From positions 210,061 to 274,060 of the forward strand of contig JAJUGU010000002.1 in NCBI GenBank assembly GCA_029265815.1: a stretch of 64,000 nt of DNA, read 5' to 3'. The DNA comes from Anaerolineaceae bacterium (lineage in GTDB: Bacteria; Chloroflexota; Anaerolineae; Anaerolineales; Anaerolineaceae). Of this stretch, positions 7,837-27,785 are shown piece after piece. The notes beneath the pieces were generated by a model. It was not told the DNA's origin. It was given only the letters and a program-made list of their open reading frames with translations, and did not search any database. The first letter of the stretch is position 1. Every line of letters begins with the position of its first letter. Position numbers and translations under genes: made by a program.

Positions 7837-9012
7837 ATGATTCCCCGTTATGAACCGACCTATTCTTTTTCTGACCTCCATAGAAGTCTGTCTCGAAGTT
7901 TACGAGAAGATCGAACCAACAAGCTTGAGGCACTTGCTCGAGAATATTTTAAAGTGCAGCATGCATTCTTGATGAGAAGCGGGAAAACCTGTTTATATGC
8001 CATTTTGAAAGCGTGGAATCGCCCGGGGAAAGTGTTGATGCCAGCGTACAATTGTGCGGACGTTCCTGAAGCAGCAGTTTTCGCAGGTTATTCCCCGCAA
8101 TTTCTCGACGCAGATCCATCCACTCTAAATGTATCCATTGAGAGTTTCGAAAAAGCCATTACAGAAGGGGTTACCGCCATTATTGTTATTAGTCTGTTTG
8201 GAGTACCTTACGACTTACGTGAGTTACGAGAAGTAACTGCGAAAAAAGGGATCCTGCTGATTGAAGACGCAGCCTCAGCCATGGGTTCACGAGTCGATGG
8301 ACAACTGACAGGAACTTTGGGTGATGTTGGAGTTGTCAGTTTTCAAGATACCAAGCCGCTTTCTGCAAAAACTGGCGGGTTAATTCTTACCAATGATGAT
8401 CAAATTGGAATAAACATCGACCTCGTATTAAAGGATGTAAAAACTCAGCATAGGATCTGGCAAATTTATTTCGCATCACTTTTTCGAAAATTAGCTACCC
8501 GACACTGGATATACCCCTTCTCACTGGCTGCTTACAAACTGTTGATTGGAGAAAGATTTTATGAAATCGTGGAGGCTCCAGAAAAACCTGAAACGGAATA
8601 CTTTCGTAAATGTTCACCTTTCAGCGTGGAGTTGATCCTGAGTCAATGGGACACATTTGATAAAAATATTCATCGACGACAAAAAATTGCCAGCAGATAC
8701 TCGGAAATGCTCGAAGGCCATTCAGCCTTTGAAATTCCATTTGTTCCATCAGGGATTGAACCGGCATGGATTCAATTTCCGCTGCTGGTCAGAAACAAGC
8801 AACATTTCTATCGGTATATGCAGCGGCATGGCATAGATGTCACCTGGACATATCGTTACAATTGTGCTGAAGAATTTGGCCAACGAAATTGCCCAATTTC
8901 CGAGAGGATCGCCAGATCGATCGTAAGTTTACCCTGCTATCCAGATTTGAAAGATTATGAGGTTCAAAAGGTATGCCAGATTGCTTCAGAATATACTGAT
9001 CCTCTTGGATAA
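7837..9012 (+). CDS. DegT/DnrJ/EryC1-like PLP-dependent enzyme, divergent (paralogue 1)
   Basis: 391 aa. It is collinear by eye with fold-type I sugar aminotransferases: RSGKTCLYAIL, LIEDAASAMGS, and GDVGVVSFQDTKPLSAKTGG with Lys at the PLP position. The usual GEGG box reads KTGG. Confidence 0.7.
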   Translation: MIPRYEPTYSFSDLHRSLSRSLREDRTNKLEALAREYFKVQHAFLMRSGKTCLYAILKAWNRPGKVLMPAYNCADVPEAAVFAGYSPQFLDADPSTLNVSIESFEKAITEGVTAIIVISLFGVPYDLRELREVTAKKGILLIEDAASAMGSRVDGQLTGTLGDVGVVSFQDTKPLSAKTGGLILTNDDQIGINIDLVLKDVKTQHRIWQIYFASLFRKLATRHWIYPFSLAAYKLLIGERFYEIVEAPEKPETEYFRKCSPFSVELILSQWDTFDKNIHRRQKIASRYSEMLEGHSAFEIPFVPSGIEPAWIQFPLLVRNKQHFYRYMQRHGIDVTWTYRYNCAEEFGQRNCPISERIARSIVSLPCYPDLKDYEVQKVCQIASEYTDPLG

Positions 9013-9113
9013 GGATATTCCTTTATGAAAATTTGAATTATCTTGAATAACAGATATTTCTAGCTCTCAAAATGACCATGTTAAAAAGTAGTTCTTCATG
9101 ACAGGGTGTTTTC

Positions 9114-10292
9114 ATGATGATTCCTCGATACGAACCTACTTATTCATTTGCAGAAATCCACCGCAGTTTCTTTCAGGCATTACGGAATAACCGGACAGGT
9201 GTGCTTGAAGCTTACTTGAAAGACTATTTCCGGGTTAAGCATGTTTTTCTCATGAAAAGTGGAAGATCTTCGCTATTCGTAATATTGAAAGCACTCAACC
9301 GGCCTGGAAAAGTATTAATGCCAGCATACAACTGCAGAAATGTTCCAGAATCTGCCTGGTTTGCAGGGTATTCACCCTTGCTGCTGGATCCAGATCTGGA
9401 CACTTTGAATGTGCAACCGGAGAAATATCTTGACCGAATGTCAGAAAATGTCAGTGCCATCTTTGCTATCAGCCTGTTTGGTATTCCTTACGATGTGCGA
9501 CCTCTTGTGGATGCTGCACGTAATAAAGGAATTCTTCTGGTGGAGGATGCTGCTACTGCATTAGGAAGCCGAGTGGGCGGACGCATCACAGGCACGATTG
9601 GTGATGTTGGGGTGATCAGTTTTCAAGATACAAAACTGCTTTCTGCTAATACTGGAGGTGTAATCATTACCAATAACGACCAGATCGCACAGAAAATATC
9701 AACATTTCTTGAGAATGTGCCTATGGAGGATGAGATCTGGCGAAATTACCTTTCCACTATGTTTCATAAATCAGCCACCAGACATTGGATCTATCCCATT
9801 ACACAACTTACTCACCGGATAATGAATGGTGAGGCGATGTACGAAATAGTTCCCCCTCCAACAGCAACAGCACCTGGTTACCTGGCCAGGTGCTCGGCAT
9901 TCAGCGTGGAACTTATCATGAATCAATGGCAAAACCTTGACTGGAATATTCGTAGAAGGCGCTGGATTGCTGGTCGATATACACAGGCGCTTTCCGGTCG
10001 AGATACTTTTCGAATTCCAGTAATCTCTGAAGAAATTGAACCAGTATGGATTCAGTATCCCTTACTAACAAAAAGAAAGTTCGAGTTTTTCAAGTATATG
10101 CAGAGCCGAGGCGTAGATCTCACCTGGTCGCACCGATACTCCTGTGCTGAAGAATTCCATCAAGCTGATTGTCCGAACGCTGAAATCATTGCCAGGTCAA
10201 TTTTGAGTTTACCCTGCCACCCTGGGTTAACAGATGCAGAGGTAGACAAGGTTTGCCAGATCATTGCTGACTATGCTGATAGGCGTGGATAG
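9114..10292 (+). CDS. DegT/DnrJ/EryC1-like PLP-dependent enzyme, divergent (paralogue 2)
   Basis: 392 aa and a tandem paralogue of 7837-9012. The two are the same length and collinear, with more than half of residues identical by eye (MIPRYEPTYSF, VLMPAYNC, GDVGVISFQDTKLLSANTGG, SLPCHPGL, KVCQI). Confidence 0.7.
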   Translation: MMIPRYEPTYSFAEIHRSFFQALRNNRTGVLEAYLKDYFRVKHVFLMKSGRSSLFVILKALNRPGKVLMPAYNCRNVPESAWFAGYSPLLLDPDLDTLNVQPEKYLDRMSENVSAIFAISLFGIPYDVRPLVDAARNKGILLVEDAATALGSRVGGRITGTIGDVGVISFQDTKLLSANTGGVIITNNDQIAQKISTFLENVPMEDEIWRNYLSTMFHKSATRHWIYPITQLTHRIMNGEAMYEIVPPPTATAPGYLARCSAFSVELIMNQWQNLDWNIRRRRWIAGRYTQALSGRDTFRIPVISEEIEPVWIQYPLLTKRKFEFFKYMQSRGVDLTWSHRYSCAEEFHQADCPNAEIIARSILSLPCHPGLTDAEVDKVCQIIADYADRRG

Positions 10293-10301
10293 GAGTCATC
10301 C

Positions 10302-11234
10302 ATGAATCCTGAGACTTTTGCTGAATGGATAAGGCGGCAGGGTTACAAGGTTTATCACACAAAATCCAGCTACTGGTATAACGCAGGTCCGGGGGTGTAT
10401 CAAGCCTTTCCTTATCACTGGCAGATTGATCCTGACGACGATGAGTTACGGGAACTGATGCACCAGAGTGGAGCAATTGCAGTTCGCTATTCCAAACCAT
10501 ATTCGTGCAAGACAGGAAAGATCAGTTATCATGTCATCGCAAAACCACCTTATGAATTTGAATCTTTTAGATCTCAAGGGAAAAATGGCATCCGCAAGGG
10601 TTTATCTCAATGTAGAATTGAGCAGGTTTCATTTTCAAGGTTAGCAGAGGAAGGTTGGAAATTACAGCAAGACACCCTGACCCGCCAGCAACGATCGAAG
10701 TGCATGACGCGCGAGCAATGGGAGAGAATCTGCCTTTCTGCTGAAGGATTACCAGGGTTTGAGGTTTGGGCCGCAATTGTTGGCGAATCGCTGGCAGCAA
10801 CGGTCATCACAGCCAGGATTGATGATACCTGGACAATCCCATACGCACAAAGCCTGCGAGAATATCTGTGTTTACACGTCAATAACGCACTTTTTTACAC
10901 CGTTTGTTCCGACTTTCTCAACCGTCCAGGGATCAATCAAGTTTTTACGAATCTTCATTCGCTAGATGCACCTGAAAGTGTAGATGAGTTTAAATTCCGT
11001 ATGGGATTGATTCCCAAACCAGTAAGGCAGCAAATTTATTTCAATTCATGGTTTCGGCCATTTATCGGAAAGTTCACATACAGGTTGGTAAAACTGATCC
11101 AAAATTCAAATCCCTTCAATCCATTCTGGACAAAAACGGAAGGAATTTTTCGATTCTATATTGAAGGAAAACTACCACCTGAGAAGCAATGTTTACCTGA
11201 AAGTCTGATCAATGATCTTCTTCTTGAATCCTAG
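10302..11234 (+). CDS. Hypothetical soluble protein, possibly a FemAB/CelD-like GNAT-fold acyl/aminoacyl transferase
   Basis: 310 aa with no signal peptide, starting 10 nt after the upstream stop. The general resemblance to CelD/FemAB-like proteins of EPS loci is a weak by-eye call. Confidence 0.35.
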   Translation: MNPETFAEWIRRQGYKVYHTKSSYWYNAGPGVYQAFPYHWQIDPDDDELRELMHQSGAIAVRYSKPYSCKTGKISYHVIAKPPYEFESFRSQGKNGIRKGLSQCRIEQVSFSRLAEEGWKLQQDTLTRQQRSKCMTREQWERICLSAEGLPGFEVWAAIVGESLAATVITARIDDTWTIPYAQSLREYLCLHVNNALFYTVCSDFLNRPGINQVFTNLHSLDAPESVDEFKFRMGLIPKPVRQQIYFNSWFRPFIGKFTYRLVKLIQNSNPFNPFWTKTEGIFRFYIEGKLPPEKQCLPESLINDLLLES

Positions 11235-11239
11235 AATTT

Positions 11240-11788
11240 GTGAATTCAAAGGATTTGAACATGGTAACCAACAGAGATTGTCAACTGGGGCAATTGAATC
11301 AAAACAGCAGGCGGATATGGTTTGAGACTAATCACCCGCAAGGTTTTATTCTATTCATCCTATCAAAGGTATGGAATCGAGGAGTAAAACCATTTCGAGC
11401 GTGGTTGTTCCGTCTTTTTCAACCAAAAAAGGTCAACCGCAAACAGCCATCTACTTCTCAATGGGTTGACTCCAATCCAGTCGAATTTCATCCTGGTGAT
11501 ATCGTTCGAGTCAGAACAAGGGAAGAGATCGAACCCATGCTGGATGCAGACAGGAAGTTCCGCGGTTGTACTTTCCTGGATTGTATGTGGGCATATTGTG
11601 GGACGACACAAAAGGTGTTTAAGCCCTTGCATCGCTTTCTTGATGAACGCGATTTTAAGTATAAAAGAGTTAATGGTGTCGTCATCCTCGAAGGAGTCTT
11701 CTGTGACGGCGTTTTAGTTTTTGGGCAATGTGACCGCAGTTGTTTTTTGTTCTGGCGCGAAGAATGGCTGGAAAAGCTTTCGTCGTAG
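11240..11788 (+). CDS. Hypothetical Cys-rich protein
   Basis: 182 aa with a GTG start (alternative ATG at 11270). The C-terminal half is Cys-rich (GCTFLDCMWAYCG ... FCDG ... GQCDRSC). It is tightly packed between its neighbours. I recognised no family. Confidence 0.5.
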   Translation: MNSKDLNMVTNRDCQLGQLNQNSRRIWFETNHPQGFILFILSKVWNRGVKPFRAWLFRLFQPKKVNRKQPSTSQWVDSNPVEFHPGDIVRVRTREEIEPMLDADRKFRGCTFLDCMWAYCGTTQKVFKPLHRFLDERDFKYKRVNGVVILEGVFCDGVLVFGQCDRSCFLFWREEWLEKLSS

Positions 11789-11800
11789 GAGCGTAAAAAT

Positions 11801-12697
11801 ATGCCACAGGATTCAATCCTTCAACTGATTGGCAATATCCCGATGCTTCAACTCTCAAAGATGTCATCGGGCAATGTATTTGCCAAAGCAGAATTTCTCA
11901 ACCCGGGTGGAAGTATTAAGGATAGGGTCGCCCTGTACATCATTGAAAAAAATATACAGAACGGAATCCTAAAGAAGGGTATGACGATAATCGAGGCTAC
12001 TTCAGGGAATACAGGGATTGGCCTAAGTCTGGTGGGTGTTCAAAAAGGTTTCAAAGTGGTGTGTATCATGCCTGAAAATGTATCTGAAGAACGCAAACGT
12101 ATTATTCAGGCTTTTGGCGGTCGATGCCTTTTTTCGCCGGCGGAAGAAAACCTCACCGGATGTTTAAACATGTTACATGATATTGTTAGCCAAGATCCAG
12201 AAGCATACTTCGTGGTCAACCAGTTTGAAAATCCAGACAATCCAGAAACTCATTACCTGCAGACCGCACCTGAAATCTGGAAAGACATGCGGGGAGAAGT
12301 AGATTTTTTTGTGGCTGGAATTGGAAGTGGCGGGACGCTGCAGGGAATTGGTAAGTTTCTCAAGGAAAAGAATAAGAATATTAAGATCGTCGCTGTTGAA
12401 CCGCGCAACAGTGCTTCTCTGCTGGGGCGTGAACCCGGGCTTCATATGATTCAGGGGATTGGTGATGGATTCACCCCAAAGGTCGTCGACAAAAATCTGA
12501 TCGACATGGTTGTCACAGTCTCTGACGACGAAGCAATTGAGACAACCCGCAGATTGGCTCGAGAAGAAGGTTTGTTGGTGGGAACTTCTTCAGGTGCGAA
12601 TACCCACGCTGCATTGCACCTGGATAATCATAGAAACAAAGTGGTAACCGTACTGCCGGATCGTGCGGAAAGATATTTCAGCACATCGTTACTATAA
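11801..12697 (+). CDS. cysK: Cysteine synthase / O-acetylserine sulfhydrylase family PLP enzyme
   Basis: 298 aa with the PLP-lysine motif NPGGSIKDR, TSGNTGIGL and the GIGSGGTLQG loop. Confidence 0.85.
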   Translation: MPQDSILQLIGNIPMLQLSKMSSGNVFAKAEFLNPGGSIKDRVALYIIEKNIQNGILKKGMTIIEATSGNTGIGLSLVGVQKGFKVVCIMPENVSEERKRIIQAFGGRCLFSPAEENLTGCLNMLHDIVSQDPEAYFVVNQFENPDNPETHYLQTAPEIWKDMRGEVDFFVAGIGSGGTLQGIGKFLKEKNKNIKIVAVEPRNSASLLGREPGLHMIQGIGDGFTPKVVDKNLIDMVVTVSDDEAIETTRRLAREEGLLVGTSSGANTHAALHLDNHRNKVVTVLPDRAERYFSTSLL

Positions 12698-12748: not shown

Positions 12749-15700
12749 ATGAAAAAGCGATTGATCGGCTTTTGCTTGATCATCATGGCCGGAATTAACA
12801 TTTTCGTTGCTGTATACCCGGTTAAAGCACAATTGTCAGAATTGCCTGTGGAACTGTCACGTACAGTTGATCTAGGCCGTCTCGGCATTGTTTCACCAAT
12901 CGGCTTGACTTTTGACGAAATCTCAAATTCATTTATCGTTTTTGAAGGTACGGATCCTGCGGAAGAAAAAGTTGTCCTTTCCAAAGTGAAGCTTTTTGAA
13001 AAAGAGAGAGCTTTCACCCAAATTATTAATGTTGATTGCGAATCATTTTCACACTTTACATTAGATCCATTGACACAGACAGCATATTTTTACGATAAAT
13101 CCAATAAAAAAATTGTCAGGATGGAATCCATCGGGAATGATTGGCTGGTTGTGGACTCGATAAATACAGAAAAGGTAGGCGTTTTTTCAATACTTGGAAT
13201 GACCATCGATCCATTAAATCATGGTCTAAGAATCCTGGATGCGTCAGCTTCCAGAGCAATCACACTGGATAGAGAACGATGGACTGATTTTTCTCAGGAG
13301 GTGATCTCTTCTGAAAACTTGATCACCGGGATAAATTTGCAAAAGATAATAGCATTCACTGTTCATCCGGTAACTGGTATTACTTACCTCTTACTCTCTA
13401 AACCAGAGCAGGTCATTGAATTATCACCTTCTGGTGAGATTGGGAAGGTTTGGGATGTGAGTTCATTAGGGTTCATTAATCCAATTGGTATTGTTTTTGC
13501 TCCCACTGGAGACCCGACTGACAATAAAAACAACCTTGCTCTCAATATTTTGGATTCAGGTGTGAGAGGAGCATCAGATAAATCCTCAAACGCGAAGATT
13601 CTTGAAATCTCTTTTAATCTGACATCTGTGGAACCAATGGCTGAGGTGTTCCCGATCGGGATTACCAATAGTGTTCAGCTTTCTCTATGGAATCCTCCAA
13701 GCCCTGATACAGCAGGGATTGCTTATTGGCCCGCATCGGATGGTTTGTTGATCAGTGATTCAGAGGTGGACGAGATTCCAGCGCTGTTCACCGGGAAGAA
13801 TGTATTTACGTCCACGCTGGGTGGAGTGTTGACTGGAACCTGCACGACAACTGTGTTCACCAATGAACCCACAGGTGTCGCAGTTAATGATCAAAATGGC
13901 CACATTTTCTTTTCAAGCGATGATGCCGGGAAAGTATTCGAATTAAATATGGGTGAAGACGATCAGTATTGTACGGCAGATGACACCTTAACCAGTTTTA
14001 GTACCCGATCATTCAGTAGTTATGACCCGGAGGGGGTTGCATATGGTGCAGGTAATCTTTATATTGCGGATGGTGAGGGAAGTGAAATTTATATCGTCTC
14101 AGCCGGTGAAAACGGCGTGTTCGATGGTATTTCACCAACCGGAGATGATCTCGTTACCCATTTTGATACTTATATTTTTAATTTGAAAGATCCAGAGGGC
14201 ATTGAGTATAACGCTGACCGCAACACAATCAATGTTGTTGGGAATTATGGCGTAAAAGCAATTATCGAAACAGATCAAACTGGTAATTTGATCGCCAGTT
14301 ATGATCTAACCTCATTACCCACGACCGTGCGGTCAGGGTTGGCTTATGGCCCTGCCAGTGACAATTCTGGTGAAAGACATTTTTATCTCGTTTCACGTGG
14401 AGTTGACAATAGCACTGACCCTGATGAAAACGATGGGATGTTGTTCGAGATCAATACGTTTCAGATGATCGCCACCTCCACACCGCAGATGACAGCTACA
14501 GCAACCAATACCCTTACCCCATCACTGTCACCTACTATAACAGCCACACAAACCGCGACATCTACTCTTATTCCTACAATGACTTTCACAGAAACGGCTA
14601 CGATTACTCCAAATATGGCACCTTTTGTTGATGCGGGACCAAATCAGGCAGTAATTTTGCCGGAGGTGGCCATCCTGGATGGGACAGCCAGTGATGACGG
14701 AAATCCTAACCCACCTAACACTCTTTCGGCGATATGGTCATTCGTGAGTGGCCCTGGTCTGGTAAATTTTGATAACTCGAATGCGATCGATACCACAGCC
14801 AGTTTCAGTCAGCTTGGCACTTACGTACTGCAATTGAGCGTGAATGATGGAGTATTGACTTCGACAGACACTGTTACTGTGGTGGTCATGTCTTTTGGAG
14901 AGTCAAACGTTTTCGAAAAGCGTATTGCTGCTGGTAACGACGATGCTGAAGAATCAGCTACAGGAATGATGTATCGGACCAGTTCTGATTTAGAGTTGGT
15001 ATACGACACCAGTCTACAGACTGTCGGGCTGTATTTTTCAAGTTTGAATATTCCCCAAGGTGTGAGAATTACCAACGCATATATCCAGTTTAAAGCATAT
15101 AAAAAAACTTCTGAAACGACATCCCTGTTCATCAATGCCCAGGCTGCAACTAACCCCAGTACTTTCTCGGCAGCCAATTATGACATATCCTCCCGACCTC
15201 GAACGACCGCGTGTGCAACATGGAATCCACCACCGTGGACGGTGATTGGTGAAACAGGTATCAACCAACGCACCAGTGATTTGAGCAGCGTGGTTCAGGA
15301 AATCGTAAACCGATCAGATTGGGTGATTGGTAATTCTGGGGTGTTTATTATCACTGGAAGTGGTAAGCGAGTAGCACGAGCGTACAACAGCGATCCAGCA
15401 GGCGCACCTCTATTGCATATCGAGTTTCAACCCTCAGGGGTTTCTCCCACTCCTTCAACGACGAATACTTTTACCCCCACCTCCACATATCCTGCTACTG
15501 CCACTCCAACAGCTACCAGTACCTTTACGCTGACTCCAACGCTGACATTTACCTTTACTCCATCATTTACGATTCCATCAACATATACACCGACCCAAAC
15601 CCCAACTATTATAGAAACCCTTACACCAACAGTTACCAGCACTATTACAGACACACCAATTGTTACCTTGACTGATACTCCAACTCTGATGGTAACTGAT

Positions 15701-16936
15701 ACACCCACAATGGCAGCAACAGATACTCTCACACCTTTGGTGACTGATACTCCAACATTAACTGCCACAGAAGCATACACACCAACCGCAACAGATACTC
15801 TAGAACCGACAGCAACAGAAACACCGACAGCAACAGTCACTCTCACGCCCACAGTGACGGATGATCCAACACCGACAGCAACAGTCACTCTCACGCCCAC
15901 AGTGACGGATGATCCAACACCAACAGCAACAGTCACTCTCACGCCCACAGTGACGGATGATCCAACACCAACAGCAACAGTCACTCTCACGCCCACAGTG
16001 ACGGATGATCCAACACCAACAGCAACATATACGCATACCCCATCTCTTACCAGCACTCCATCACTTACACCAACATTGACACCAACACCTTCCTTGACAG
16101 CCACTACTCAGTTGAACGAATCACCATTTGTGTATGCTGGGGTTGACCAGATGGTCATTCTTCCGGCAATGGCAGAGTTAGATGGGTTTGCCAGTGATGA
16201 TGGATTGCCGGTTCCACCAGGAGCATTAACATGCCTCTGGAGTGTGGTCAGCGGGCCGGGAAGTGTTATTTTTGACAACGCTGATCAGGTTGACACAACG
16301 GCACAGTTCTCAACACCGGGCAGTTATGTACTGCAACTCAGTGTTTCTGATGGTCAATATCATTCATCAGATGAAATTTCGATCCTGGTCGGGCAATCCC
16401 ATTCGTTTGTCAGGAAGATTATTGATAAATACGATGAAGCGGAAGAAAACGCATCTGGGTACGTATATCGAACCAGCACTGATCTAGAACTGGTTTACGA
16501 TAAGACCCTGCAAACAGTTGGAATGCGCTTCACCGGAATAACGATTCCGAAGGGCTCGATCATAACAGTTGCGTATATCCAGTTTACAGTGGATTCGGCC
16601 TCTTCAGAAACGACATCACTGATCATTAAAGCCCAGGCAGCTGACAATCCGGGGGCGTTTACTTCGATTGCGTATGATGTTTCGACAAGGCCTGTGGGAG
16701 TTGCATTTGTGGCCTGGGACCCCGTTCCCTGGCTGACCTCCGGTGCAGCGGGGGTCGATCAAAGGACAACAGATCTAAGCGGTTTGATCACAGAAGTGAT
16801 CAATCGTTCTGGATGGGCATCTGGTAATTCTATTGTGTTCATCGTCACGGGTACCGGACGCAGAGTTGCGGTCTCGTATTATGGTATTCCAACTGCTGCT
16901 CCTGAATTGTATATCGAATATATCAGCTTCCAATAA
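12749..16936 (+). CDS. Large secreted multi-domain protein: N-terminal beta-propeller-like region, Thr/Pro-rich linkers, and two copies of a PKD/Ig-like plus ~190-aa module
   Basis: 1395 aa with the signal peptide MKKRLIGFCLIIMAGINIFVAVYPVKA. DPEG(V/I)(A/E)Y motifs recur in the first ~570 aa. TP-rich linkers lie at about nt 14461-14620 and 15430-16120. The module starting APFVDAGPNQAVILP...DGTASDDG (nt ~14620-15430) recurs as SPFVYAGVDQMVILP...DGFASDDG (nt ~16120-16936). Confidence 0.9.
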   Translation: MKKRLIGFCLIIMAGINIFVAVYPVKAQLSELPVELSRTVDLGRLGIVSPIGLTFDEISNSFIVFEGTDPAEEKVVLSKVKLFEKERAFTQIINVDCESFSHFTLDPLTQTAYFYDKSNKKIVRMESIGNDWLVVDSINTEKVGVFSILGMTIDPLNHGLRILDASASRAITLDRERWTDFSQEVISSENLITGINLQKIIAFTVHPVTGITYLLLSKPEQVIELSPSGEIGKVWDVSSLGFINPIGIVFAPTGDPTDNKNNLALNILDSGVRGASDKSSNAKILEISFNLTSVEPMAEVFPIGITNSVQLSLWNPPSPDTAGIAYWPASDGLLISDSEVDEIPALFTGKNVFTSTLGGVLTGTCTTTVFTNEPTGVAVNDQNGHIFFSSDDAGKVFELNMGEDDQYCTADDTLTSFSTRSFSSYDPEGVAYGAGNLYIADGEGSEIYIVSAGENGVFDGISPTGDDLVTHFDTYIFNLKDPEGIEYNADRNTINVVGNYGVKAIIETDQTGNLIASYDLTSLPTTVRSGLAYGPASDNSGERHFYLVSRGVDNSTDPDENDGMLFEINTFQMIATSTPQMTATATNTLTPSLSPTITATQTATSTLIPTMTFTETATITPNMAPFVDAGPNQAVILPEVAILDGTASDDGNPNPPNTLSAIWSFVSGPGLVNFDNSNAIDTTASFSQLGTYVLQLSVNDGVLTSTDTVTVVVMSFGESNVFEKRIAAGNDDAEESATGMMYRTSSDLELVYDTSLQTVGLYFSSLNIPQGVRITNAYIQFKAYKKTSETTSLFINAQAATNPSTFSAANYDISSRPRTTACATWNPPPWTVIGETGINQRTSDLSSVVQEIVNRSDWVIGNSGVFIITGSGKRVARAYNSDPAGAPLLHIEFQPSGVSPTPSTTNTFTPTSTYPATATPTATSTFTLTPTLTFTFTPSFTIPSTYTPTQTPTIIETLTPTVTSTITDTPIVTLTDTPTLMVTDTPTMAATDTLTPLVTDTPTLTATEAYTPTATDTLEPTATETPTATVTLTPTVTDDPTPTATVTLTPTVTDDPTPTATVTLTPTVTDDPTPTATVTLTPTVTDDPTPTATYTHTPSLTSTPSLTPTLTPTPSLTATTQLNESPFVYAGVDQMVILPAMAELDGFASDDGLPVPPGALTCLWSVVSGPGSVIFDNADQVDTTAQFSTPGSYVLQLSVSDGQYHSSDEISILVGQSHSFVRKIIDKYDEAEENASGYVYRTSTDLELVYDKTLQTVGMRFTGITIPKGSIITVAYIQFTVDSASSETTSLIIKAQAADNPGAFTSIAYDVSTRPVGVAFVAWDPVPWLTSGAAGVDQRTTDLSGLITEVINRSGWASGNSIVFIVTGTGRRVAVSYYGIPTAAPELYIEYISFQ
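15824..16015 (+). repeat. Four head-to-tail copies of a 48-bp in-frame repeat, encoding PTATVTLTPTVTDDPT x4
   Basis: The unit is ccgacagcaacagtcactctcacgcccacagtgacggatgatccaaca. Copies lie at 15824, 15872, 15920 and 15968. Copies 1-2 differ from copies 3-4 only by ccg vs cca in the first codon. A fifth, partial copy starts at 16016. Confidence 0.95.
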
Positions 16937-16971: not shown

Positions 16972-18531
16972 ATGATACGGACTCCAGCTTACTGGTTTGC
17001 TCGTTTTAACCTTAATCGTGATCGAATATCACAGAAGATCGGTCTCATGTTCAAGCGTGTCTTTGATGTGGTATTCTGCACGCTTGGATTGATCGTGCTA
17101 TCTCCGTTCTTCCTGTTCATCGCTGTGTTGATCAAAATTGGATCTCCTGGGCCCATTTTTTATCGTGGAAAACGAATGGGTAAAGACAACGTTCCCTTTA
17201 ACATTATTAAATTTCGAACAATGTATGAAACACCTGCCAGTTACATGGGTCCTAAAGTAACCTGCAGTGATGATCCGCGGGTTACCCGTGTGGGAAGATG
17301 GTTGAGAGATACCAAGATCAATGAATTTCCTCAATTGTGGAATGTGATCCGCGGTGACATGAGTCTTGTGGGACCCCGGCCGGAAGATCCAGAGATTGTG
17401 GCTGGCTGGAGTGAAGAGGAGCGCAGAGAGATTCTTTCCGTTCGCCCCGGAATTACCAGTCCGGCGAGTGTGATCTACCATGATGAAGAAAAGCTGATGG
17501 ATCTCAGAAATGTAATGGGTATCTACCTGGATGAGATCTTACCCAAGAAGCTTCGTCTGGATATGCTATATACACGGCATCGCTCATTTTTCGCAGATCT
17601 GGATATTCTCTTCCTGACTGCCCTGATCGTTTTTCCACGGTTGTTGAAGCGTTCTATACCAGATACTGCATTTTTCTCCGGGTGGATTCAACGCCTGGCG
17701 AACCGTTTTATTTCATGGCTGGTAGTGGATACATTGACAGCATTTGTGGCGATTTCCGTCATTGGCGTTTTCTACAGGAATCAGGCTCCGCTGAACTGGG
17801 GGTTCACTCCCTTATTGATATTCACGATCCTCTTTTCTTTTCTCTTTGGTATCGCGAACGCTTCCTGGAGGTTAGACCGGGTAATGTGGTCGCGCGCGAC
17901 CCTGCCTGATGCAATGAAACTGGTGATTACCGGTGGAGTGATGACAATTGCGATGATGGTTTTGAATCATAGTCAAGGAATTTATTACTGGCTTCCTTAC
18001 CCTGCGCTGCCACAATCCATGCTCTTCACGATTGGACTGTTAACGACGATTGGCTTTCTCTTCACACGGTTTCGAGTTCGGTTTTTTGATGCCCTTACTG
18101 GCGGCTGGGCTATTCTGAACAATCCTTCAGCGGCGTTTGGTGAAAGGGTGCTTATTGTTGGCTGTGGAGAAGAATCTAAGCTGGCGCTGTGGCTCTTGCA
18201 CCGCAGTTATTTTAGATATGCGTTCAAGATCGTTGGCATGGTAGATGAAAATCCGTGTTTGAAAGGGATGAAGATAGAGGGTTGCACGGTTTTAGGAAAC
18301 CTCAAGGATTTGCCAGAATTGATCAAGAAACATCATGTAGGGCTGCTCATCAGTACAGTTCAAGTGAGCAAGCTCGAACAGGTTAAGAAGATGAATCATT
18401 CATTTCTTCGCGTTGTCGCTTTAGATGAAATCTTGGGCGCTTTGTATCATGTGTTGCTTCAACCAGTCACCACGCTGGAATACTCGCAATGGACAAGTTC
18501 TTTAATCGGGAGAAGGATACGCAATGGATGA
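16972..18531 (+). CDS. Priming phosphoglycosyl transferase (bacterial sugar transferase family) with unusual domain order
   Basis: 519 aa. The N-terminal ~200 aa form a PglC/WbaP-type catalytic core (KRVFDVVFCTLGLIVLSPFFLFIAVLIKIGSPGPIFY, FNIIKFRTM, DDPRVTRVGRWLRDTKINEFPQLWNVIRGDMSLVGPRPE). About four TM helices follow. A C-terminal Rossmann-like segment then reads ERVLIVGCGEESKLALWLL...KIVGMVDENP. Confidence 0.85.
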   Translation: MIRTPAYWFARFNLNRDRISQKIGLMFKRVFDVVFCTLGLIVLSPFFLFIAVLIKIGSPGPIFYRGKRMGKDNVPFNIIKFRTMYETPASYMGPKVTCSDDPRVTRVGRWLRDTKINEFPQLWNVIRGDMSLVGPRPEDPEIVAGWSEEERREILSVRPGITSPASVIYHDEEKLMDLRNVMGIYLDEILPKKLRLDMLYTRHRSFFADLDILFLTALIVFPRLLKRSIPDTAFFSGWIQRLANRFISWLVVDTLTAFVAISVIGVFYRNQAPLNWGFTPLLIFTILFSFLFGIANASWRLDRVMWSRATLPDAMKLVITGGVMTIAMMVLNHSQGIYYWLPYPALPQSMLFTIGLLTTIGFLFTRFRVRFFDALTGGWAILNNPSAAFGERVLIVGCGEESKLALWLLHRSYFRYAFKIVGMVDENPCLKGMKIEGCTVLGNLKDLPELIKKHHVGLLISTVQVSKLEQVKKMNHSFLRVVALDEILGALYHVLLQPVTTLEYSQWTSSLIGRRIRNG

Positions 18532-21413: not shown

Positions 21414-24400
21414 TTGCTGGAGGACAAAATGGAATTCAAGGATGTTGTTAAGTTTATCATCCGGCATTATCGAATCCTCATATTGGGTTTGATCCTTGGT
21501 GGAGCCATGGGGTTGATCTATACCCTTTCATCTCCTGCGCCATACGAAGCCACTTCCAAAATTCTGATTAGTCGTAACAAGTCAGATAAAGAGTCTGATT
21601 TTGGGTATTTGACTGACCAGCAATTAATCCAGACGTACGCTTACATTCTAAAAACGCGGCCTATTCTGGATCTGGTAAATGCACAAATTAATGGGAAGGT
21701 TGATCCAGATAATGTTCGTGTAAGCCAGGTTGCAGATACTTTGATCCTCCAGATCGCAGTGCGTGATCAAAATCCCCAAAAAGCCGCCTATATCGCGAAC
21801 GCATTTGCCAAAGCTATGGTTACCCGCAGCAATCAGTTGCAGGAAGAGCAATACAAACTCGAAGAAGCGGGGTTAACCAGCCAGATCAATTCCATCCGCA
21901 CCCAGATCGATGAACTGCAGGCACAATACGACAATCGTGAAATTACCGTCAATCAATCGATTATAGATGATGTCGATAAACAGATCCTGGCGTATCGTAA
22001 CGAAATACTGACACTACAGAAAGAAATCTCGCTGATTAAAACTCCCACTAATCTGGAACAGGAATCTTATATCATTGAGCGAAAAACCAGGTTAGAAGAA
22101 ATACAGCCATTGCTGGTAATGTATCAGGAAATCCGTACCAACCTTGAATATCTCGGAAGACCATATCAAAGTGGAAGCGCGCCTGAAGATACGACATTGT
22201 CACGACTAAAAACCACAATCGATCAATACCAGGAGGTAAACCTGACACTCTTGAATTCGTTAGAGAAGATTCGATTGGAAAAAGTGCAAAGTGAACCTAC
22301 AGTACAGACTATCGAGGAAGCGGCTGTTCCGACTGACAGAACTTCTCTAGTGTTTGTGATGAATCCGGTAATCGCAAGTGGAGTTGGATTAATCATTGCC
22401 ATACTCTTAGGGCTGTTCCAGGATCGTAAGGGATTGAAGGTTGCCAACCAGCAACAACTATTAAAGAACCTGGGGCTAGAAGTCGTTGGTTCTATTCCAC
22501 CAATTCCTGCCTTAAAAGGTAATGCAGGACTTAATTCAAATATTTCTGTGGAAGATGAGGAAATGAAGCCGTTTCATATCTTGCGAGCTTTCCTCGAATT
22601 TCACAGAATCAGAAATCCATACAAGAGCCTGCTTGTTACAAGCTTTGCCATTGGTGATGGTAAATCAACTGTAGCGTCTGCTCTGGCAGTTAATTATGTT
22701 CTGGGCGGCGACCCTATCGTTCTGGTGGATGCCAATTTTTCGAATGCCAGTCAACATATCTGGTTTAGAACGGGAAAAGATACAGGGTTGAGTGACATTC
22801 TTTATCGAAATCAAGCGTTTGATAAGCAATTCCTCAAGAATACCTCTTTTGAAAATCTTAAAATTCTCACGGCTGGTGAGTATTCGCCGATATCCATGCA
22901 GTTGATCGATCCACAGAAAATGGTAGAACTCCTTAAGAACGCTGAAAATGCTTTAAAACTTGTCATTGTTGACGGTCCCCCATTATCAGATCTCAACGCA
23001 ATGCTGTTAGCATCTGCAGTGGATAAAATCCTTTTAGTGATTCGTACGGGAGTCTATGCGTTGGATGGATTGGCAGAGACTCTCAACGATCTAGGAGTTG
23101 ATCGGAATAAGATTCTGGGTGTTGTTCTTAATGAACCAGTACCTGGGGCGGCTGAAATTTCTTTTGGAGAGGATGAAATTTCTACTCGTAAATTTGAAGA
23201 AACACGTCTTGAACTGAATGTCATCAGTGAAGCCAAGTCGTCTTCTCAACCTTTGAATGAAGAATTGGTTCGATTGGATATTTCTTCTGAAAATGACCAA
23301 TCATTAATGACTGGAGAACCAGAAATCATGCCGTCACAACCGAAGGGTGGTGATGAACCGGGTGTCGTCGATCAATCTGAATTCGTATCTGATTCTTCAC
23401 AAGAACATGTCGTGTCACGTTTGTTCCATTTCCCGGGGATTTTTGGGAGAAAGCAAGAGAAGAATGTGGGCATTTCTTCTGCTGACGTACCTCGAGAAAA
23501 AACAGATGGACAAATAGATGAAAGGGTTGAACCTTTTCTTTCTGAAGATGTTTCCATTCAATCCACAGGTGAGAATCCTATTGATGATATGCCAGCAATC
23601 TCGCAGGGATTAGATGAAACCAGATCTATCCTATCCTGGTTAAAATTCTGGCGAAAACCTAAGGAGCCAGAAACAACCAGAACCAATGATTTGACTGGAG
23701 AACTACCTGAAAAGATCGAAGGTAATGAAATAAAAACAGACGATAGCAAGTTATCTGACCTGGTTGAAAATGGATCTTCCTCATCGATCTTTCAAATTTC
23801 GAGTAGTAAAAAAGACTCTGAAAGGAATTTTGACCCCAATACAAACCTAACTGATTCCCTGACGGAGATTATAAATCCAGTAAAACAGGCTCGAGATCCA
23901 ATTTTTGAGAAGGTTAAACATTCGTTGGATCCATTATGGAACCAACTGCAAAAGGTAATGCAGGCGAAGAAAGGAATGACCGCAGAAACTGAAGTGGTTG
24001 ATAAAGTGAATAGGATAATGGCTTCAGAACTTGAAACACAGATGCCTGAAGAAGTCGCTCTGGATAGTCAAAAAAAGATGGGCGTTGTTGACGAACCTCA
24101 AACCCAAATCAAGCCAAAGCGAACCAAAAAAGAGGTGGTGTTAACCGATACACAACTGGAGATTCCGGTAATTGTTGAGGCGACTGGGAGCAATAAAAAA
24201 TCTTCTAAAGTAAGCGGAGAATCAAAATTATTCGATGAGGCAGTCAGTTCTAAAAAGAGAGCAAGCAGAGGCAGACCACGAAAAAATCAAGAACAGGAAC
24301 TCGAACCTGATGTTCTAATAACGAGTTCCACACAATTTAAATCCAGTGTCCGTGGCAAGCATGGAAAGGATCAGATTTCCAACACTATTGCGGAAAAAAC

Positions 24401-24626
24401 CAAGAATGCTGATACGGCTAACCTTAAAAAGAAAAACAGCGCCAAGAAAATCAGCGGGGTAACCGCTGGTTCTAACGCAGTGGAAAATCTTTCTAAACCA
24501 CACAAAACGGGTTCCAGTGCAGTCAAGAAAAAATCACCACCATCATCATCTTCGAAAAAGACAGCCAAAGAAAAGAAGAAAGTTGTTATTGGTGCAGATC
24601 TAAACTCACGAGATCATGAAATCTGA
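21414..24626 (+). CDS. Polysaccharide co-polymerase (Wzz-like) fused to a BY-kinase/MinD-type P-loop ATPase domain, with a long disordered C-terminal extension
   Basis: 1070 aa from a TTG at 21414; the more likely start is ATG 21429. TM1 is ILILGLILGGAMGLIY, followed by a coiled-coil region and TM2 VIASGVGLIIAILLGLF. Walker A is SFAIGDGKST (22653-22670), Walker A' is VLVDAN and Walker B is LVIVDGPP. The last ~490 aa are rich in S, K and E. Confidence 0.8.
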   Translation: MLEDKMEFKDVVKFIIRHYRILILGLILGGAMGLIYTLSSPAPYEATSKILISRNKSDKESDFGYLTDQQLIQTYAYILKTRPILDLVNAQINGKVDPDNVRVSQVADTLILQIAVRDQNPQKAAYIANAFAKAMVTRSNQLQEEQYKLEEAGLTSQINSIRTQIDELQAQYDNREITVNQSIIDDVDKQILAYRNEILTLQKEISLIKTPTNLEQESYIIERKTRLEEIQPLLVMYQEIRTNLEYLGRPYQSGSAPEDTTLSRLKTTIDQYQEVNLTLLNSLEKIRLEKVQSEPTVQTIEEAAVPTDRTSLVFVMNPVIASGVGLIIAILLGLFQDRKGLKVANQQQLLKNLGLEVVGSIPPIPALKGNAGLNSNISVEDEEMKPFHILRAFLEFHRIRNPYKSLLVTSFAIGDGKSTVASALAVNYVLGGDPIVLVDANFSNASQHIWFRTGKDTGLSDILYRNQAFDKQFLKNTSFENLKILTAGEYSPISMQLIDPQKMVELLKNAENALKLVIVDGPPLSDLNAMLLASAVDKILLVIRTGVYALDGLAETLNDLGVDRNKILGVVLNEPVPGAAEISFGEDEISTRKFEETRLELNVISEAKSSSQPLNEELVRLDISSENDQSLMTGEPEIMPSQPKGGDEPGVVDQSEFVSDSSQEHVVSRLFHFPGIFGRKQEKNVGISSADVPREKTDGQIDERVEPFLSEDVSIQSTGENPIDDMPAISQGLDETRSILSWLKFWRKPKEPETTRTNDLTGELPEKIEGNEIKTDDSKLSDLVENGSSSSIFQISSSKKDSERNFDPNTNLTDSLTEIINPVKQARDPIFEKVKHSLDPLWNQLQKVMQAKKGMTAETEVVDKVNRIMASELETQMPEEVALDSQKKMGVVDEPQTQIKPKRTKKEVVLTDTQLEIPVIVEATGSNKKSSKVSGESKLFDEAVSSKKRASRGRPRKNQEQELEPDVLITSSTQFKSSVRGKHGKDQISNTIAEKTKNADTANLKKKNSAKKISGVTAGSNAVENLSKPHKTGSSAVKKKSPPSSSSKKTAKEKKKVVIGADLNSRDHEI

Positions 24627-24794: not shown

Positions 24795-24932
24795 ATGAAG
24801 CAAATTATTGTGATCTTGATTTGTTTTTGCTTACTGGCATTGCCAATGTCTGTAAGTGCTGATATCGCTCCTCCGGCTGAACCACCCGGAGCGAACCCTA
24901 AACCTGGTAATGAATCAACCCAGGTACGATGA
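24795..24932 (+). CDS. 45-codon ORF encoding only a signal peptide plus a Pro-rich spacer, possibly the detached N-terminus of the next gene
   Basis: My own translation reads MKQIIVILICFCLLALPMSVSADIAPPAEPPGANPKPGNESTQVR*. The ORF is below the track cutoff. Its TGA (24930-24932) overlaps the ATG (24929-24931) of the next ORF. Confidence 0.5.
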   Translation: MKQIIVILICFCLLALPMSVSADIAPPAEPPGANPKPGNESTQVR

Positions 24933-26233
24933 CTTCCGAGATGATTCTGATTGAAATCCTTGAGGATACTTCAATGGAATCCCGGTATGTTGCTACAGCC
25001 ACTGCCGGTCAAGAACCAGAGACCCTTGGCCTCGCCAAAGTAACAGCGAGTTTTAATATGCGCAATCTTGGAAAGTTACCTGAAACTATGGCGGTCCGGT
25101 TTCCTGTGGGGACAGATGATGGCAGAGGAAATAATGTTGAACTGCGGGATGTGAAGATTGCAGTTGATGGAATGCCGGTCAATATGCGCAGGATCATGGC
25201 TGAAGATCCGTTAGAGAGGGTACCGCAGGTACCGTGGGTAGAATTTGATGTATTATTCCCGGTACAGACAGATGTGGTCATTAAAGTGCAGTACATTCTT
25301 GAGGCAGCCGGTGAGCTGCCCTATATACGATTTGATTACGTGTTTTCTACCGGGGCTGCATGGAAAGGAACGATCGGAAACGCCGAGCTGACGGTTCGTT
25401 TCCCTTACAAGGTAAATATATTGAATTACATTCCCGGCAGTGAATATGGAAATGTACGTTATATCCCGGGGGGGATCCGCTGCGAGAATCAGATCAACTG
25501 GGTGTTCACCAATTTCGAACCAGATGCCGATGACAATTTTTCAATTACCCTTGCGGCTCCATCTGTCTGGCAGCAAATTCTTCTGGAGCAAAGCCGGGTA
25601 AAAGCCAATCCTGATGATAGTGAAGCCTGGGGTAGGCTTGGGAAGTTGTATAAATCTCTGGTGATGTCTTCGCATGGTGGTAGAGGTTTTAGGGATTATG
25701 TACTAGAGGAAGACCCGGGTGTACAGGAATTGTTTGATCTTGGTGTTAACGCTTATGAGAATGCAATTACACTTGCACCCGATGATGCTTTGTGGCATGC
25801 CGGTTACGCAGAACTGCTGGGGTTTTACGCTTATCACGCAAAATATGAAGGGATTGACACAGCGCAAATTACAACAAGGGCTCTTGAGCAGATTAAACTT
25901 GCGTTAGATCTAGATTCCGAAAATGAAACAGTCAGGGATATTGAATACACTCTGGAGTTTTATTTCCCGCAGGGGATTGTGAGCGAAAATGGCGTATACG
26001 ATTTTCCATGGCTGACAAGAACTCCTGTAATTGAGACCATGACCGTAACATCAACTGATCTGACCGCTATACCAACAATGACTTCCGAAATTATCCATCT
26101 TACAGATACCCCGATGCCCTCAACAACCCCGGAGGTGGAGCAGCAGGACAATCTTCCGCTCTGCGGCACATTATTGCTGGTGCCGTTTATCTTGTTAATC
26201 GGATTGAAACTTCAAAAAACGAAACTACATTAG
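24929..26233 (+). CDS. Exported/anchored protein with a beta-rich N-domain, a TPR-like helical region, a Thr/Pro-rich stalk and a C-terminal TM anchor
   Basis: 434 aa with no signal peptide of its own. It carries the TP-rich segment TVTSTDLTAIPTMTSEIIHLTDTPMPSTTPE. The C-terminus is LPLCGTLLLVPFILLIGLKLQKTKLH. Confidence 0.7.
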   Translation: MTSEMILIEILEDTSMESRYVATATAGQEPETLGLAKVTASFNMRNLGKLPETMAVRFPVGTDDGRGNNVELRDVKIAVDGMPVNMRRIMAEDPLERVPQVPWVEFDVLFPVQTDVVIKVQYILEAAGELPYIRFDYVFSTGAAWKGTIGNAELTVRFPYKVNILNYIPGSEYGNVRYIPGGIRCENQINWVFTNFEPDADDNFSITLAAPSVWQQILLEQSRVKANPDDSEAWGRLGKLYKSLVMSSHGGRGFRDYVLEEDPGVQELFDLGVNAYENAITLAPDDALWHAGYAELLGFYAYHAKYEGIDTAQITTRALEQIKLALDLDSENETVRDIEYTLEFYFPQGIVSENGVYDFPWLTRTPVIETMTVTSTDLTAIPTMTSEIIHLTDTPMPSTTPEVEQQDNLPLCGTLLLVPFILLIGLKLQKTKLH

Positions 26234-26243
26234 AATTGTATTT

Positions 26244-27785
26244 ATGAACCTCCAACATAGAAGAAAATTAGCAATCGTTGCTGTCATATTCCTTGCATTG
26301 GTATTGATAAGAATTCCATTTTATCTAACACACCATATCCAGGAAGATGCATACATTACACTACGTTGTGCAAAAAACCTGGCCGAAACGGGAATTTACG
26401 GGTACAACCCGGGTGAACGTGTTAGTGCATCGACATCTCATCTTTATGTGTTTCTCGCTGCAATCGTGCGTTTGGTAGCAGGTAAAAACGCTTTCATAAC
26501 GGTTGTACAGGTGGTCAATACTATTCTGTTTGTTGCGGGTAGTTATTTCTTGGCGAGAGTGCTTCAAAAACCCGGAAAAGGGATGTTAATACTCTGGATC
26601 ATTCTATCTTTGCTTCCGGTATCTCTATTGATCAGCTATTCAGGGATGGAGACCTCTCTTCTGATTTTCATGGTCGGATTGGTTTTGTATCTGTTGCACG
26701 AACAACAGTACCATTGGCTGGCATTATTGAGTTTTGCAATGATTCCCTGGGTGCGACCGGATGCAATTGCCTGTTCTTTGATTATCCTGTTCTGGGTATC
26801 GATTCGTAGCGGTAAACCTCGCTTTGACCTGGCAGGAGCTGTACTTGCAGGGATAGGAACTTTTTTTGCCTTTAATTGGCTTTATTTTGGTGCTTTTCTC
26901 AACAATTCTATTCTTGCTAAAGAACAGAGCCGGCCTGCATTTTCAGTAGAACGGGTTTTTTCCACAGTAAAAACGGTTTTCTTTGGTGAGAATGGAGGAT
27001 TATTTACCCCCATCCGAACCAAATATCTGGATCATTTCGGAGTGGTCTTTCTGTTATTGGTGGCTGTTGGGATGATTATTTTCATAATTCAATATCGTAA
27101 TAACAGGCAGGTATTCTATTCGGGTCTGTCGATTATTAGTATGGCCTTGCTAATCCCAGCCGCTTATTCTTTGGGTAGGGTTGTCTTTCCATGGTACTTC
27201 TGGCCAGCAACATTCTTTGGATACGCCATTGTTTGTGCCTTGGTGGTTGATTGGCTATCAAAAAGTCGCAAAGGATACAGGCTGGCGAGTGTCATCATTG
27301 GATTGGCGGTCTTGGGGGGAATGGCTGCTCAATGGTGTTACTCGTATAGCTGGGGAATGAAGGAATATGCCTACCGGGGAGAGATCGGGATGAAACTGGC
27401 TGAATTAGCCCGTGAGAATGACACACTGTTTCTTGAACCCGCAGGGTATATCCCGTATTATTCTGGTTTGTATACATACGATGAAGCCGGATTGGGATCT
27501 CCACTAATATTACATTATCGAGATCTTTATCAGACACCATGGTGGATCCGGTTTGTCGAGGATGCACAACCGGATTGGATCATCCAACGAGAACATTTTA
27601 AGGAATTTACGACTTATCAGGGATATATATTAAACGAGACCGAACAAAGGTGGTTTTTAGACCAATACCATTTAGTAGCTGAAATTTCATATCAACCACA
27701 AGATTTCACTACGCAGCCCTTTCTGGTAAGGCTGCTATCCATGGGATCGGCTGACAGTTACCTGATCTATGAGATCAATAGATAG
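26244..27785 (+). CDS. Large polytopic membrane protein, putative GT-C-fold glycosyltransferase
   Basis: 513 aa with more than 10 TM helices. The first-loop motif QEDAYITLRCAKNLAETGIYGYNPGERVSASTSHLY resembles the acidic first-loop motif of GT-C enzymes. It has a soluble C-terminal domain. Confidence 0.5.
   Translation: MNLQHRRKLAIVAVIFLALVLIRIPFYLTHHIQEDAYITLRCAKNLAETGIYGYNPGERVSASTSHLYVFLAAIVRLVAGKNAFITVVQVVNTILFVAGSYFLARVLQKPGKGMLILWIILSLLPVSLLISYSGMETSLLIFMVGLVLYLLHEQQYHWLALLSFAMIPWVRPDAIACSLIILFWVSIRSGKPRFDLAGAVLAGIGTFFAFNWLYFGAFLNNSILAKEQSRPAFSVERVFSTVKTVFFGENGGLFTPIRTKYLDHFGVVFLLLVAVGMIIFIIQYRNNRQVFYSGLSIISMALLIPAAYSLGRVVFPWYFWPATFFGYAIVCALVVDWLSKSRKGYRLASVIIGLAVLGGMAAQWCYSYSWGMKEYAYRGEIGMKLAELARENDTLFLEPAGYIPYYSGLYTYDEAGLGSPLILHYRDLYQTPWWIRFVEDAQPDWIIQREHFKEFTTYQGYILNETEQRWFLDQYHLVAEISYQPQDFTTQPFLVRLLSMGSADSYLIYEINR

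Follow-up and report, generated by a model that had tools for sequence, protein, structure and literature searches.

An exported tandem-propeller protein with a widespread uncurated domain is conserved among the polysaccharide gene clusters of Chloroflexota

PslG, AlgL, and BcsZ are secreted polymer-processing enzymes that are encoded in exopolysaccharide (EPS) operons and cut their polymer outside the cell. In Vibrio cholerae, the genes for RbmC and Bap1 adjoin the vps genes; both proteins join a beta-propeller to lectin modules and bind the matrix polymer. The literature describes the propeller protein CarP as calcium-regulated, and beyond CarP it yielded nothing on the function of YjiK or of their family, PF06977. 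Here we analyze a protein of 1395 amino acids (aa) encoded on the forward strand at positions 12749-16936 of a 64,000-nucleotide stretch of an Anaerolineaceae genome (GenBank assembly GCA_029265815.1, contig JAJUGU010000002.1, positions 210,061 to 274,060; this whole stretch is called the window below). The protein recurs as a conserved component of the gene clusters for cell-surface polysaccharide in Chloroflexota, and we consider it likely that, once exported, it works on or with the polysaccharide of its locus outside the cell.

The first 28 kb of the window form one same-strand polysaccharide locus. It starts with genes for a Wzx-like flippase, a GT4 glycosyltransferase, Wzy, a second GT4, an epimerase, a third GT4, two DegT-like aminotransferases, two unknown proteins, and CysK, and continues after the gene under study with genes for a priming phosphoglycosyl transferase, a dehydratase, a nucleotidyltransferase, another DegT protein, and a Wzz/P-loop co-polymerase. 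Only 51 nt upstream and 35 nt downstream separate the gene from its same-strand neighbors, and there is no flanking terminator. An earlier note on this DNA, made from the sequence alone, had placed the gene between cysK and the priming transferase, and both neighbors proved to be as named: the upstream protein is a genuine CysK, with 362.6 bits for TIGR01139 (cut-off 350.95), and the downstream protein is a polyprenyl glycosylphosphotransferase. Like the EPS-operon enzymes of the PslG, AlgL, and BcsZ type, the protein is encoded within a putative biosynthetic operon and exported.

To describe the context of homologues, we examined 12 loci individually, 10 with full-length homologues and 2 with partial relatives. 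In loci L001, L003, and L004, homologues with 70%, 59%, and 45% identity lie directly upstream of a 519-aa priming transferase, and this position is kept even where the upstream DegT/CysK block differs or is absent. Seven full-length homologues are more distant (32-38% identity), and five of these lie in or beside clusters (L082, L083, L084, L085, and L088) that hold Wzy, GT4, sulfotransferases, UDP-glucose dehydrogenase, and deacetylase; the context of L086 is ambiguous. Altogether, 8 of the 10 loci with full-length homologues (32-71% identity) belong to or adjoin polysaccharide clusters. The window's own genome contains 16 GT4 genes at ~11 places, and by a rough estimate the regions within 8 kb on either side of GT4 genes make up roughly 7% of the sequence. 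The association with polysaccharide clusters is therefore far above this rough base rate of ~7%, in loci that are few and partly related. Thus, the link of the gene to a glycan locus, which the earlier note had allowed might be incidental, is not incidental, and the giant exported protein that it had called unusual in such a locus is a recurrent accessory within this lineage.

The protein is encoded by a single open reading frame (ORF) of 1395 codons with the Shine-Dalgarno sequence AGGA 7 nt 5' of the ATG. Its translation begins with a signal peptide of typical Sec type, which reads MKKRLIGFCLIIMAGINIFVAVYPVKA and is followed by Q at the predicted cleavage site. The features of the gene, in window coordinates, are:

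12749..12829, + strand: Sec-type signal peptide, residues 1-27, predicted cleavage after VKA (translation; AGGA upstream)
12830..13654, + strand: N1, apparently degenerate YjiK/NHL-like propeller domain, residues 28-302, five blade-like repeats (hhalign against N2; repeat spacing)
13655..14464, + strand: N2, acidic YjiK/NHL-like propeller domain, residues 303-572, five repeats PDTAG, EPTG, DPEG, DPEG, and RSG (profile matches, conservation)
14465..14617, + strand: Thr/Pro-rich linker 1, residues 573-623 (composition)
14618..14890, + strand: K319L-like PKD copy A, residues 624-714 (PF22352 at 629-713)
14891..15439, + strand: domain X copy A, residues 715-897, predicted CBM96/CBM100-like beta-sandwich, uncurated (family hidden Markov model [HMM], AlphaFold2, Foldseek)
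15440..16120, + strand: Thr/Pro stalk, residues 898-1124, 227 aa (composition)
15820..16027, + strand: tandem repeat, 48 bp x 4.3, in frame, inside the stalk (Tandem Repeats Finder)
16121..16390, + strand: K319L-like PKD copy B, residues 1125-1214 (second PF22352 stretch; alignment to copy A)
16391..16936, + strand: domain X copy B, residues 1215-1395, plus the stop codon (family HMM; alignment to copy A)

This anatomy agrees with the earlier note, which had described an exported 1395-aa protein with a propeller-like N-terminus, a duplicated module, and a Thr/Pro stalk; all of these are present at the coordinates it gave, and the recurring blade motifs that it had pointed to were found as EPTGVAV, DPEGVAY, and DPEGIEY. 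We saw no lipobox, SLH domain, sortase signal, or C-terminal membrane segment in the 1395-aa protein. A Pfam scan of the whole protein returned only PKD (PF22352), twice, and a faint NHL match (24.7 bits, with no single passing stretch), and an NCBIfam scan of the whole protein gave no match, so that membership in curated families ends at PKD.

The N-terminal region, read by the earlier note as one propeller-like unit, is indeed propeller-like, but its ~545 aa comprise two homologous domains, N1 and N2, whose profiles aligned in hhalign with a probability of 100% and an E of 1e-53. N2 stands alone in Nocardioides proteins. A phmmer search of the N-terminal region against PDB sequences returned only noise, and an N2 profile was needed to reach known structures. 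This profile matched 3QQZ (YjiK) at an E of 4.8e-8, in a match spanning 74 residues only, as well as the NHL domain of SOQ1 (3e-8) and designed and natural NHL propellers. Among 18 N2 domains, Pfam matched NHL in 17, SdiA-regulated in 12, Phytase-like in 8, and SGL in 6. The 12 matches to SdiA-regulated (PF06977) were found at E ≤ 0.1, with a best value of 2e-9; in the window protein itself, PF06977 gave no match at E ≤ 1. N2 homologues also match calcium-dependent hydrolase families (SGL, arylesterase, phytase-like) weakly. By motif count on the sequence, N1 and N2 each contain five evenly spaced blade-like motifs, over ~265 aa in N2, and this spacing fits what would be expected of a five-bladed YjiK-like propeller. 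A six-bladed form of N1 and N2, first read from the NHL and Pizza matches, was dropped, since the motif count gave five repeats.

Conservation is very unequal between the two domains. In N2, 42 columns are conserved at ≥90%, 22 of them Asp/Glu (74 sequences), compared to 16 such columns in N1, only 4 of which are Asp/Glu. Based on this difference, N2 is probably the working copy, and a calcium-binding one, and N1 looks like its degenerate partner. At E ≤ 1e-20, N2 was found in the window's own genome and in none of the 150 other genomes sampled from the same class, which implies that the family is patchy. Elsewhere, the propeller pair is fused to true CBM96, CBM_4_9, F5/8-type-C, and SLH domains, and distant homologues retain the propellers but differ in their C-terminal parts. 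One polysaccharide cluster (L085 3967-11471) contains two paralogues of the propeller protein, of 1326 and 1156 aa, in tandem.

Domain X (~175 aa) had no match in Pfam, in NCBIfam, or among PDB sequences (phmmer, and a 57-sequence profile for PDB), and in particular no carbohydrate-binding module (CBM) chain was found for X among PDB sequences by either method. The family HMM of X placed its two copies at residues 722-894 (7e-81) and 1222-1391 (5e-73) of the window protein. D17, Y64, W111, W116, and W144 (numbered on X, not on the full protein) are invariant in X. Single-sequence AlphaFold prediction of module A gave a predicted local distance difference test (pLDDT) score of 32.6, and a 57-sequence alignment from the fetched loci was used instead, which gave a model of X with a pLDDT of 96.1 and a predicted template modeling (TM) score of 0.92. 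In a Foldseek search against PDB, this model matched 8WAB, which we take from its PDB title and release date to be the CBM100 entry, with an E of 3e-7 (2.7e-7), a probability of 1.0, and a TM score of 0.63-0.66 over 195-197 aligned columns at 18-19% identity. BMP9 prodomains were also matched, as was 7VBO (E 1.6e-4, probability 1.0, TM score 0.51), and a search against BFVD returned phage tail proteins, some labelled CBM96, with TM scores of 0.61-0.63. CBM100 is the module by which a chondroitinase binds chondroitin sulfate (Liu et al. 2024, Int J Biol Macromol 255:127959, as cited in PMC11943901), and 7VBO is the founding CBM96 structure, with TGF-beta prodomains among its structural neighbors (PMC9971899). 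Characterized CBM96 and CBM100 members bind alginate and chondroitin sulfate (PMC9971899; PMC11943901).

At the sequence level, the relation of X to CBM96 is faint. Pfam CBM96 scored 31-47 bits, summed over weak stretches, exactly within the X copies of flavobacterial phosphoesterases, and PF24517 gave faint matches (E 0.005) in 2 of 57 X family members. PF24517 had no match at E ≤ 1 in the whole window protein or in X alone, and NF033679 had none. True CBM96 domains were not retrieved by the X profile, and hhalign of X against four CBM96 domains gave an E of 0.09 and a low probability, with a very shallow template alignment. A collinearity seen by eye between the X segment DDAEE...VGLRF and the CBM96 N-terminus was dropped, as Pfam and hhalign pair AYIQF of X with YLRF of CBM96. 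The structural model thus gives X, a divergent family that is uncurated, the CBM96/CBM100 fold and not a new one. The earlier note had left a ~190-aa module unassigned, which holds insofar as no curated sequence model covers X; a new fold is not implied, since the pLDDT-96 model places X with CBM100 and CBM96.

X is very widespread. A two-sequence profile retrieved 14,087 representatives of clusters at 50% identity at E ≤ 0.001 and 3,919 at E ≤ 1e-30, and single proteins carry as many as six copies. Species-representative genomes were scanned from conserved peptides as seeds, which favors conserved members, and yielded 350 relatives with roughly 47-64% identity in Chloroflexota, Cyanobacteria, rhizobia, Actinomycetota, Bacteroidota, Gammaproteobacteria, Bacillota, Campylobacterota, Aminicenantes, and Candidatus Jettenia (anammox). 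In the window's own genome (2.58 Mb, 99.4% complete), X and the propeller are each confined to this one gene. The partners of X include PKD and cadherin-like Ig domains and very often metallophosphoesterase or purple-acid-phosphatase-like domains, as well as beta-helix, polysaccharide deacetylase, subtilase, and pyrroloquinoline quinone (PQQ) dehydrogenase domains, type IX secretion system (T9SS) sorting tails, and RTX repeats. A 1356-aa protein of Sinorhizobium saheli (L013 2237-6307) combines two X copies with cadherin-like repeats, a metallophosphoesterase, and C-terminal RTX-like glycine-rich repeats, and this architecture implies that X also travels on proteins resembling type I secretion substrates.

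The company that X keeps bears on a different explanation, in which the protein would be a general calcium-dependent phosphoesterase or phytase-like enzyme for scavenging or at the surface, its link to polysaccharide would be only regulatory or historical, and X would bind some common ligand other than a glycan, for example extracellular DNA or phosphorylated polymers. The most frequent fusion partners of X are metallophosphoesterase and purple-acid-phosphatase-like domains, Metallophos occurs in orthologues P0004 and P0005, and the propeller protein of L087 adjoins an X-bearing metallophosphoesterase away from any glycan cluster; the Phytase-like matches in 8 of 18 N2 domains, although weak, and the ~50% identity of X across phyla, which suggests a universal ligand, point the same way. 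We nevertheless regard this explanation as quite unlikely, given the polysaccharide clusters in or beside which 8 of the 10 full-length homologue loci lie, the lack of a phosphoesterase domain in the window protein itself (Pfam), and the polysaccharide-binding modules that are the structural neighbors of X.

Each X copy follows a PKD domain, and the two PKD+X modules are duplicates. PF22352 (K319L-like PKD) scored 58.6 bits against a gathering cut-off of 27, in two stretches, the better one at residues 629-713. Modules A (residues ~624-897) and B (~1125-1395), noted earlier as collinear with about half of their positions identical by eye, share 54% identity and 72% positives over 270 residues (E 4e-105), which is far beyond chance, and the X copies taken by themselves are 51% identical. 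Between the window protein and orthologues P0002-P0005, module 1 has an identity of 64-82%, against only ~55% between modules 1 and 2 within the window protein, and module 2 shows the same pattern, being closer to module 2 of the orthologues than to module 1 of the same protein. Because identity across orthologues exceeds identity within the protein, both modules have been retained since before the P0002-P0005 lineages split, and by this comparison the module duplication predates the orthologues.

The composition of the intervening segments bears out the short Thr/Pro linker and long Thr/Pro stalk that the earlier note had marked. Thr and Pro make up 52-60% of each 50-residue block in the stalk core (residues ~901-1100) and 57% of the whole inter-module stretch (895-1123), and the 48-bp array inside the stalk has a Tandem Repeats Finder score of 402 with 99% matches. 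Close orthologues have 107-229 aa between the two modules; this stretch grows to 465-523 aa in P0004 and P0005, where the insert includes a metallophosphoesterase domain (Metallophos in P0005 by Pfam). The differences among the shorter stalks (107-229 aa) fit expansion and contraction of the 48-bp array.

These stalks are the basis of the idea that the protein could be a carrier of the glycan, its Thr/Pro stalks being O-glycosylated with the product of the locus to form a surface glycoprotein or a proteoglycan-like sheath component. Some 280 residues are Thr/Pro-rich, the gene is embedded among glycan-synthesis genes, and the stalk is hypervariable in length with a tandem repeat array inside it. 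However, Thr/Pro linkers are generic in secreted multidomain proteins, and no protein-specific oligosaccharyltransferase or O-glycosyltransferase was identified near the gene. Moreover, it is the folded domains that are conserved and not the stalk, P0004 and P0005 have a longer, enzyme-containing insert in its place, and distant homologues retain the propellers with other C-terminal parts. We therefore hold a carrier role to be very improbable, and it is the least supported of the three roles that had been suggested for the protein (carrier, anchor/adhesin, and modifying enzyme).

We infer glycan binding by X, calcium binding by N2, a catalytic activity, and its substrate, the first from the fold match of X to CBM100 and CBM96, binders of anionic polysaccharides, and the second from the 22 conserved Asp/Glu of N2 and its weak matches to calcium-dependent hydrolase families. 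Taken together, the protein would be a Sec-exported, unanchored accessory of a Wzx/Wzy exopolysaccharide locus that acts on the polymer extracellularly. The X domains, each on a PKD spacer and a flexible Thr/Pro stalk, would hold the protein on the polysaccharide. The acidic constellation of N2, presumably calcium-loaded, would be the working site, here taken as catalytic, with N1 as a degenerate structural copy, and N2 would trim, cleave, or de-esterify the nascent or released polymer. This reading of the protein as a calcium-dependent enzyme that processes exopolysaccharide, with its active site in N2 and X as the targeting module, is one that we put forward tentatively, at somewhat less than even confidence. 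The genomic setting, the fusions of the propeller pair to CBM96 and other binding domains, and the partners of X count in its favor; X elsewhere is mostly carried by enzymes (metallophosphoesterase, beta-helix, polysaccharide deacetylase, subtilase). Several observations weigh against it. The Pfam scan of the protein recognized no glycoside hydrolase, lyase, or esterase catalytic domain, and no enzymatic activity of the YjiK/CarP family is known from the literature. The L087 homologue lies outside a glycan cluster and adjoins an X-bearing metallophosphoesterase, and the partial relatives L090 and L091 are also outside glycan loci. The cluster already encodes, upstream, a GHL15-like candidate hydrolase. 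Finally, the window's cluster has amino-sugar genes, and uronate and sulfate genes were not seen in it, so that an anionic ligand is not implied here.

Several of the same observations would suit a non-catalytic scaffold of the matrix or sheath, that is, a multivalent lectin that, by analogy with RbmC and Bap1, might cross-link the polysaccharide or tie it to the filament surface. The protein has four potential binding modules (two propellers and two CBM-like modules) spaced by flexible stalks of variable length and no catalytic domain recognizable by Pfam, the named proteins nearest to it (YjiK and CarP) are not known to be enzymes, and both X copies have been retained since before the orthologues diverged. 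The cluster already holds a separate GHL15-like candidate hydrolase, and placement in a polysaccharide locus fits a scaffold equally well. On the other hand, a cell anchor is absent (no SLH domain, sortase signal, or transmembrane segment was seen), the P0004 and P0005 chains themselves include a metallophosphoesterase domain, and X is elsewhere mostly attached to enzymes. The 22 conserved acidic positions of N2 are likewise more typical of an active or metal-dependent site, although calcium-dependent lectins can show such conservation. We regard a scaffold as a real but doubtful possibility and slightly favor a processing enzyme over it. A bolder version of the enzyme reading, which we consider unlikely, is that the tandem YjiK-like propellers would be the catalytic core of a new class of calcium-dependent polysaccharide enzymes (lyases, hydrolases, or phosphodiesterases) serving Chloroflexota Wzx/Wzy loci, and that X would be a new, very large CBM family with a conserved ligand.

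Other features of the locus and its relatives were observed alongside. CysK lies inside the polysaccharide operon (window 7837-12697) after two divergent DegT-like genes and two ORFs (310 and 182 aa) without a family match. L001 and L004 have this DegT/CysK block and L003 lacks it, which suggests that it is an optional sugar-modification cassette. In the priming transferase (window 16972-18531), the Bac_transf domain is N-terminal (residues 28-221) and a CoA_binding_3/Rossmann-like region follows (392-478); this order is the reverse of that usual in WbaP and WcaJ, the protein scores below NCBIfam cut-offs, and the 519-aa form is kept in L001, L003, and L004. The Wzz/P-loop co-polymerase (window 21414-24626) has 1070 aa, with a long tail past its AAA_31 domain, and is followed by ORFs of 434 and 513 aa (window 24929-27785) that have no family match and are kept downstream in L001 and L003. 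On the 5' side of the window, on the same strand and before Wzx (L089 8107-11270), are genes for a NusG paralogue (perhaps an antiterminator specific to the operon), a DUF218 protein, and a GHL15-like + Golvesin_C protein of 635 aa, which is a second candidate for a polymer-processing enzyme; P-loop proteins are also encoded there on the same strand. Sulfotransferases, a ~430-aa BNR/sortilin-like protein, and ~530-aa P-loop/NTP_transf_5-like proteins recur in the clusters of L082, L083, L084, L085, and L088, and the P-loop proteins upstream of the window's own cluster are related to those of these loci. The set of sulfotransferases, BNR protein, and P-loop proteins may be a conserved sulfated-exopolysaccharide module in Chloroflexota.

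With its 14,087 clusters (50% identity), X ranks among the larger domain families missed by the curated libraries at hand, and a fold and likely role for X provide a handle on thousands of unnamed secreted proteins, including many X-bearing metallophosphoesterases. The tandem propeller family gives the YjiK/CarP fold a reproducible context in exopolysaccharide clusters, often sulfated, from which a testable hypothesis of function follows. Activated sludge and anaerobic digesters are rich in filamentous Anaerolineae, and proteins with an influence on the extracellular polymer of these organisms are relevant to flocculation and bulking. Should the protein prove to be an ordinary binding protein, the gain is mainly in annotation.

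Among known systems, the protein resembles PslG, AlgL, and BcsZ in being secreted and encoded among exopolysaccharide genes, and differs in that a glycoside hydrolase or polysaccharide lyase domain was not seen in it. RbmC and Bap1 are comparable in being secreted and encoded at polysaccharide genes, and differ in propeller type and binding modules. For X, CBM100 (8WAB) is the best structural match, nearly over its full length, and each is an accessory module of ~175-180 aa that belongs to secreted proteins of several domains; X differs in having no sequence-level match and in being far more widespread and more conserved. With CBM96/DNRLRE (PF24517, NF033679), X shares a fold neighborhood, in that X and 7VBO both have TGF-beta prodomain neighbors, and true CBM96 domains take the equivalent place behind the same propeller pair in P0009, P0030, P0036, and P0045; however, the DNRLRE motif is absent from X, and the TM score to 7VBO is only 0.51. 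For the propellers, the closest likeness is to YjiK and CarP (PF06977; 3QQZ; P. aeruginosa CarP, PA0327), through the N2 profile match, the five blade-like repeats counted on the N2 sequence, and export of both, and the acidic conservation seen here together with the calcium regulation of CarP makes a calcium link plausible for N2. Unlike in YjiK and CarP, the domain is here duplicated in tandem, fused to PKD and X, and sited in a polysaccharide locus.

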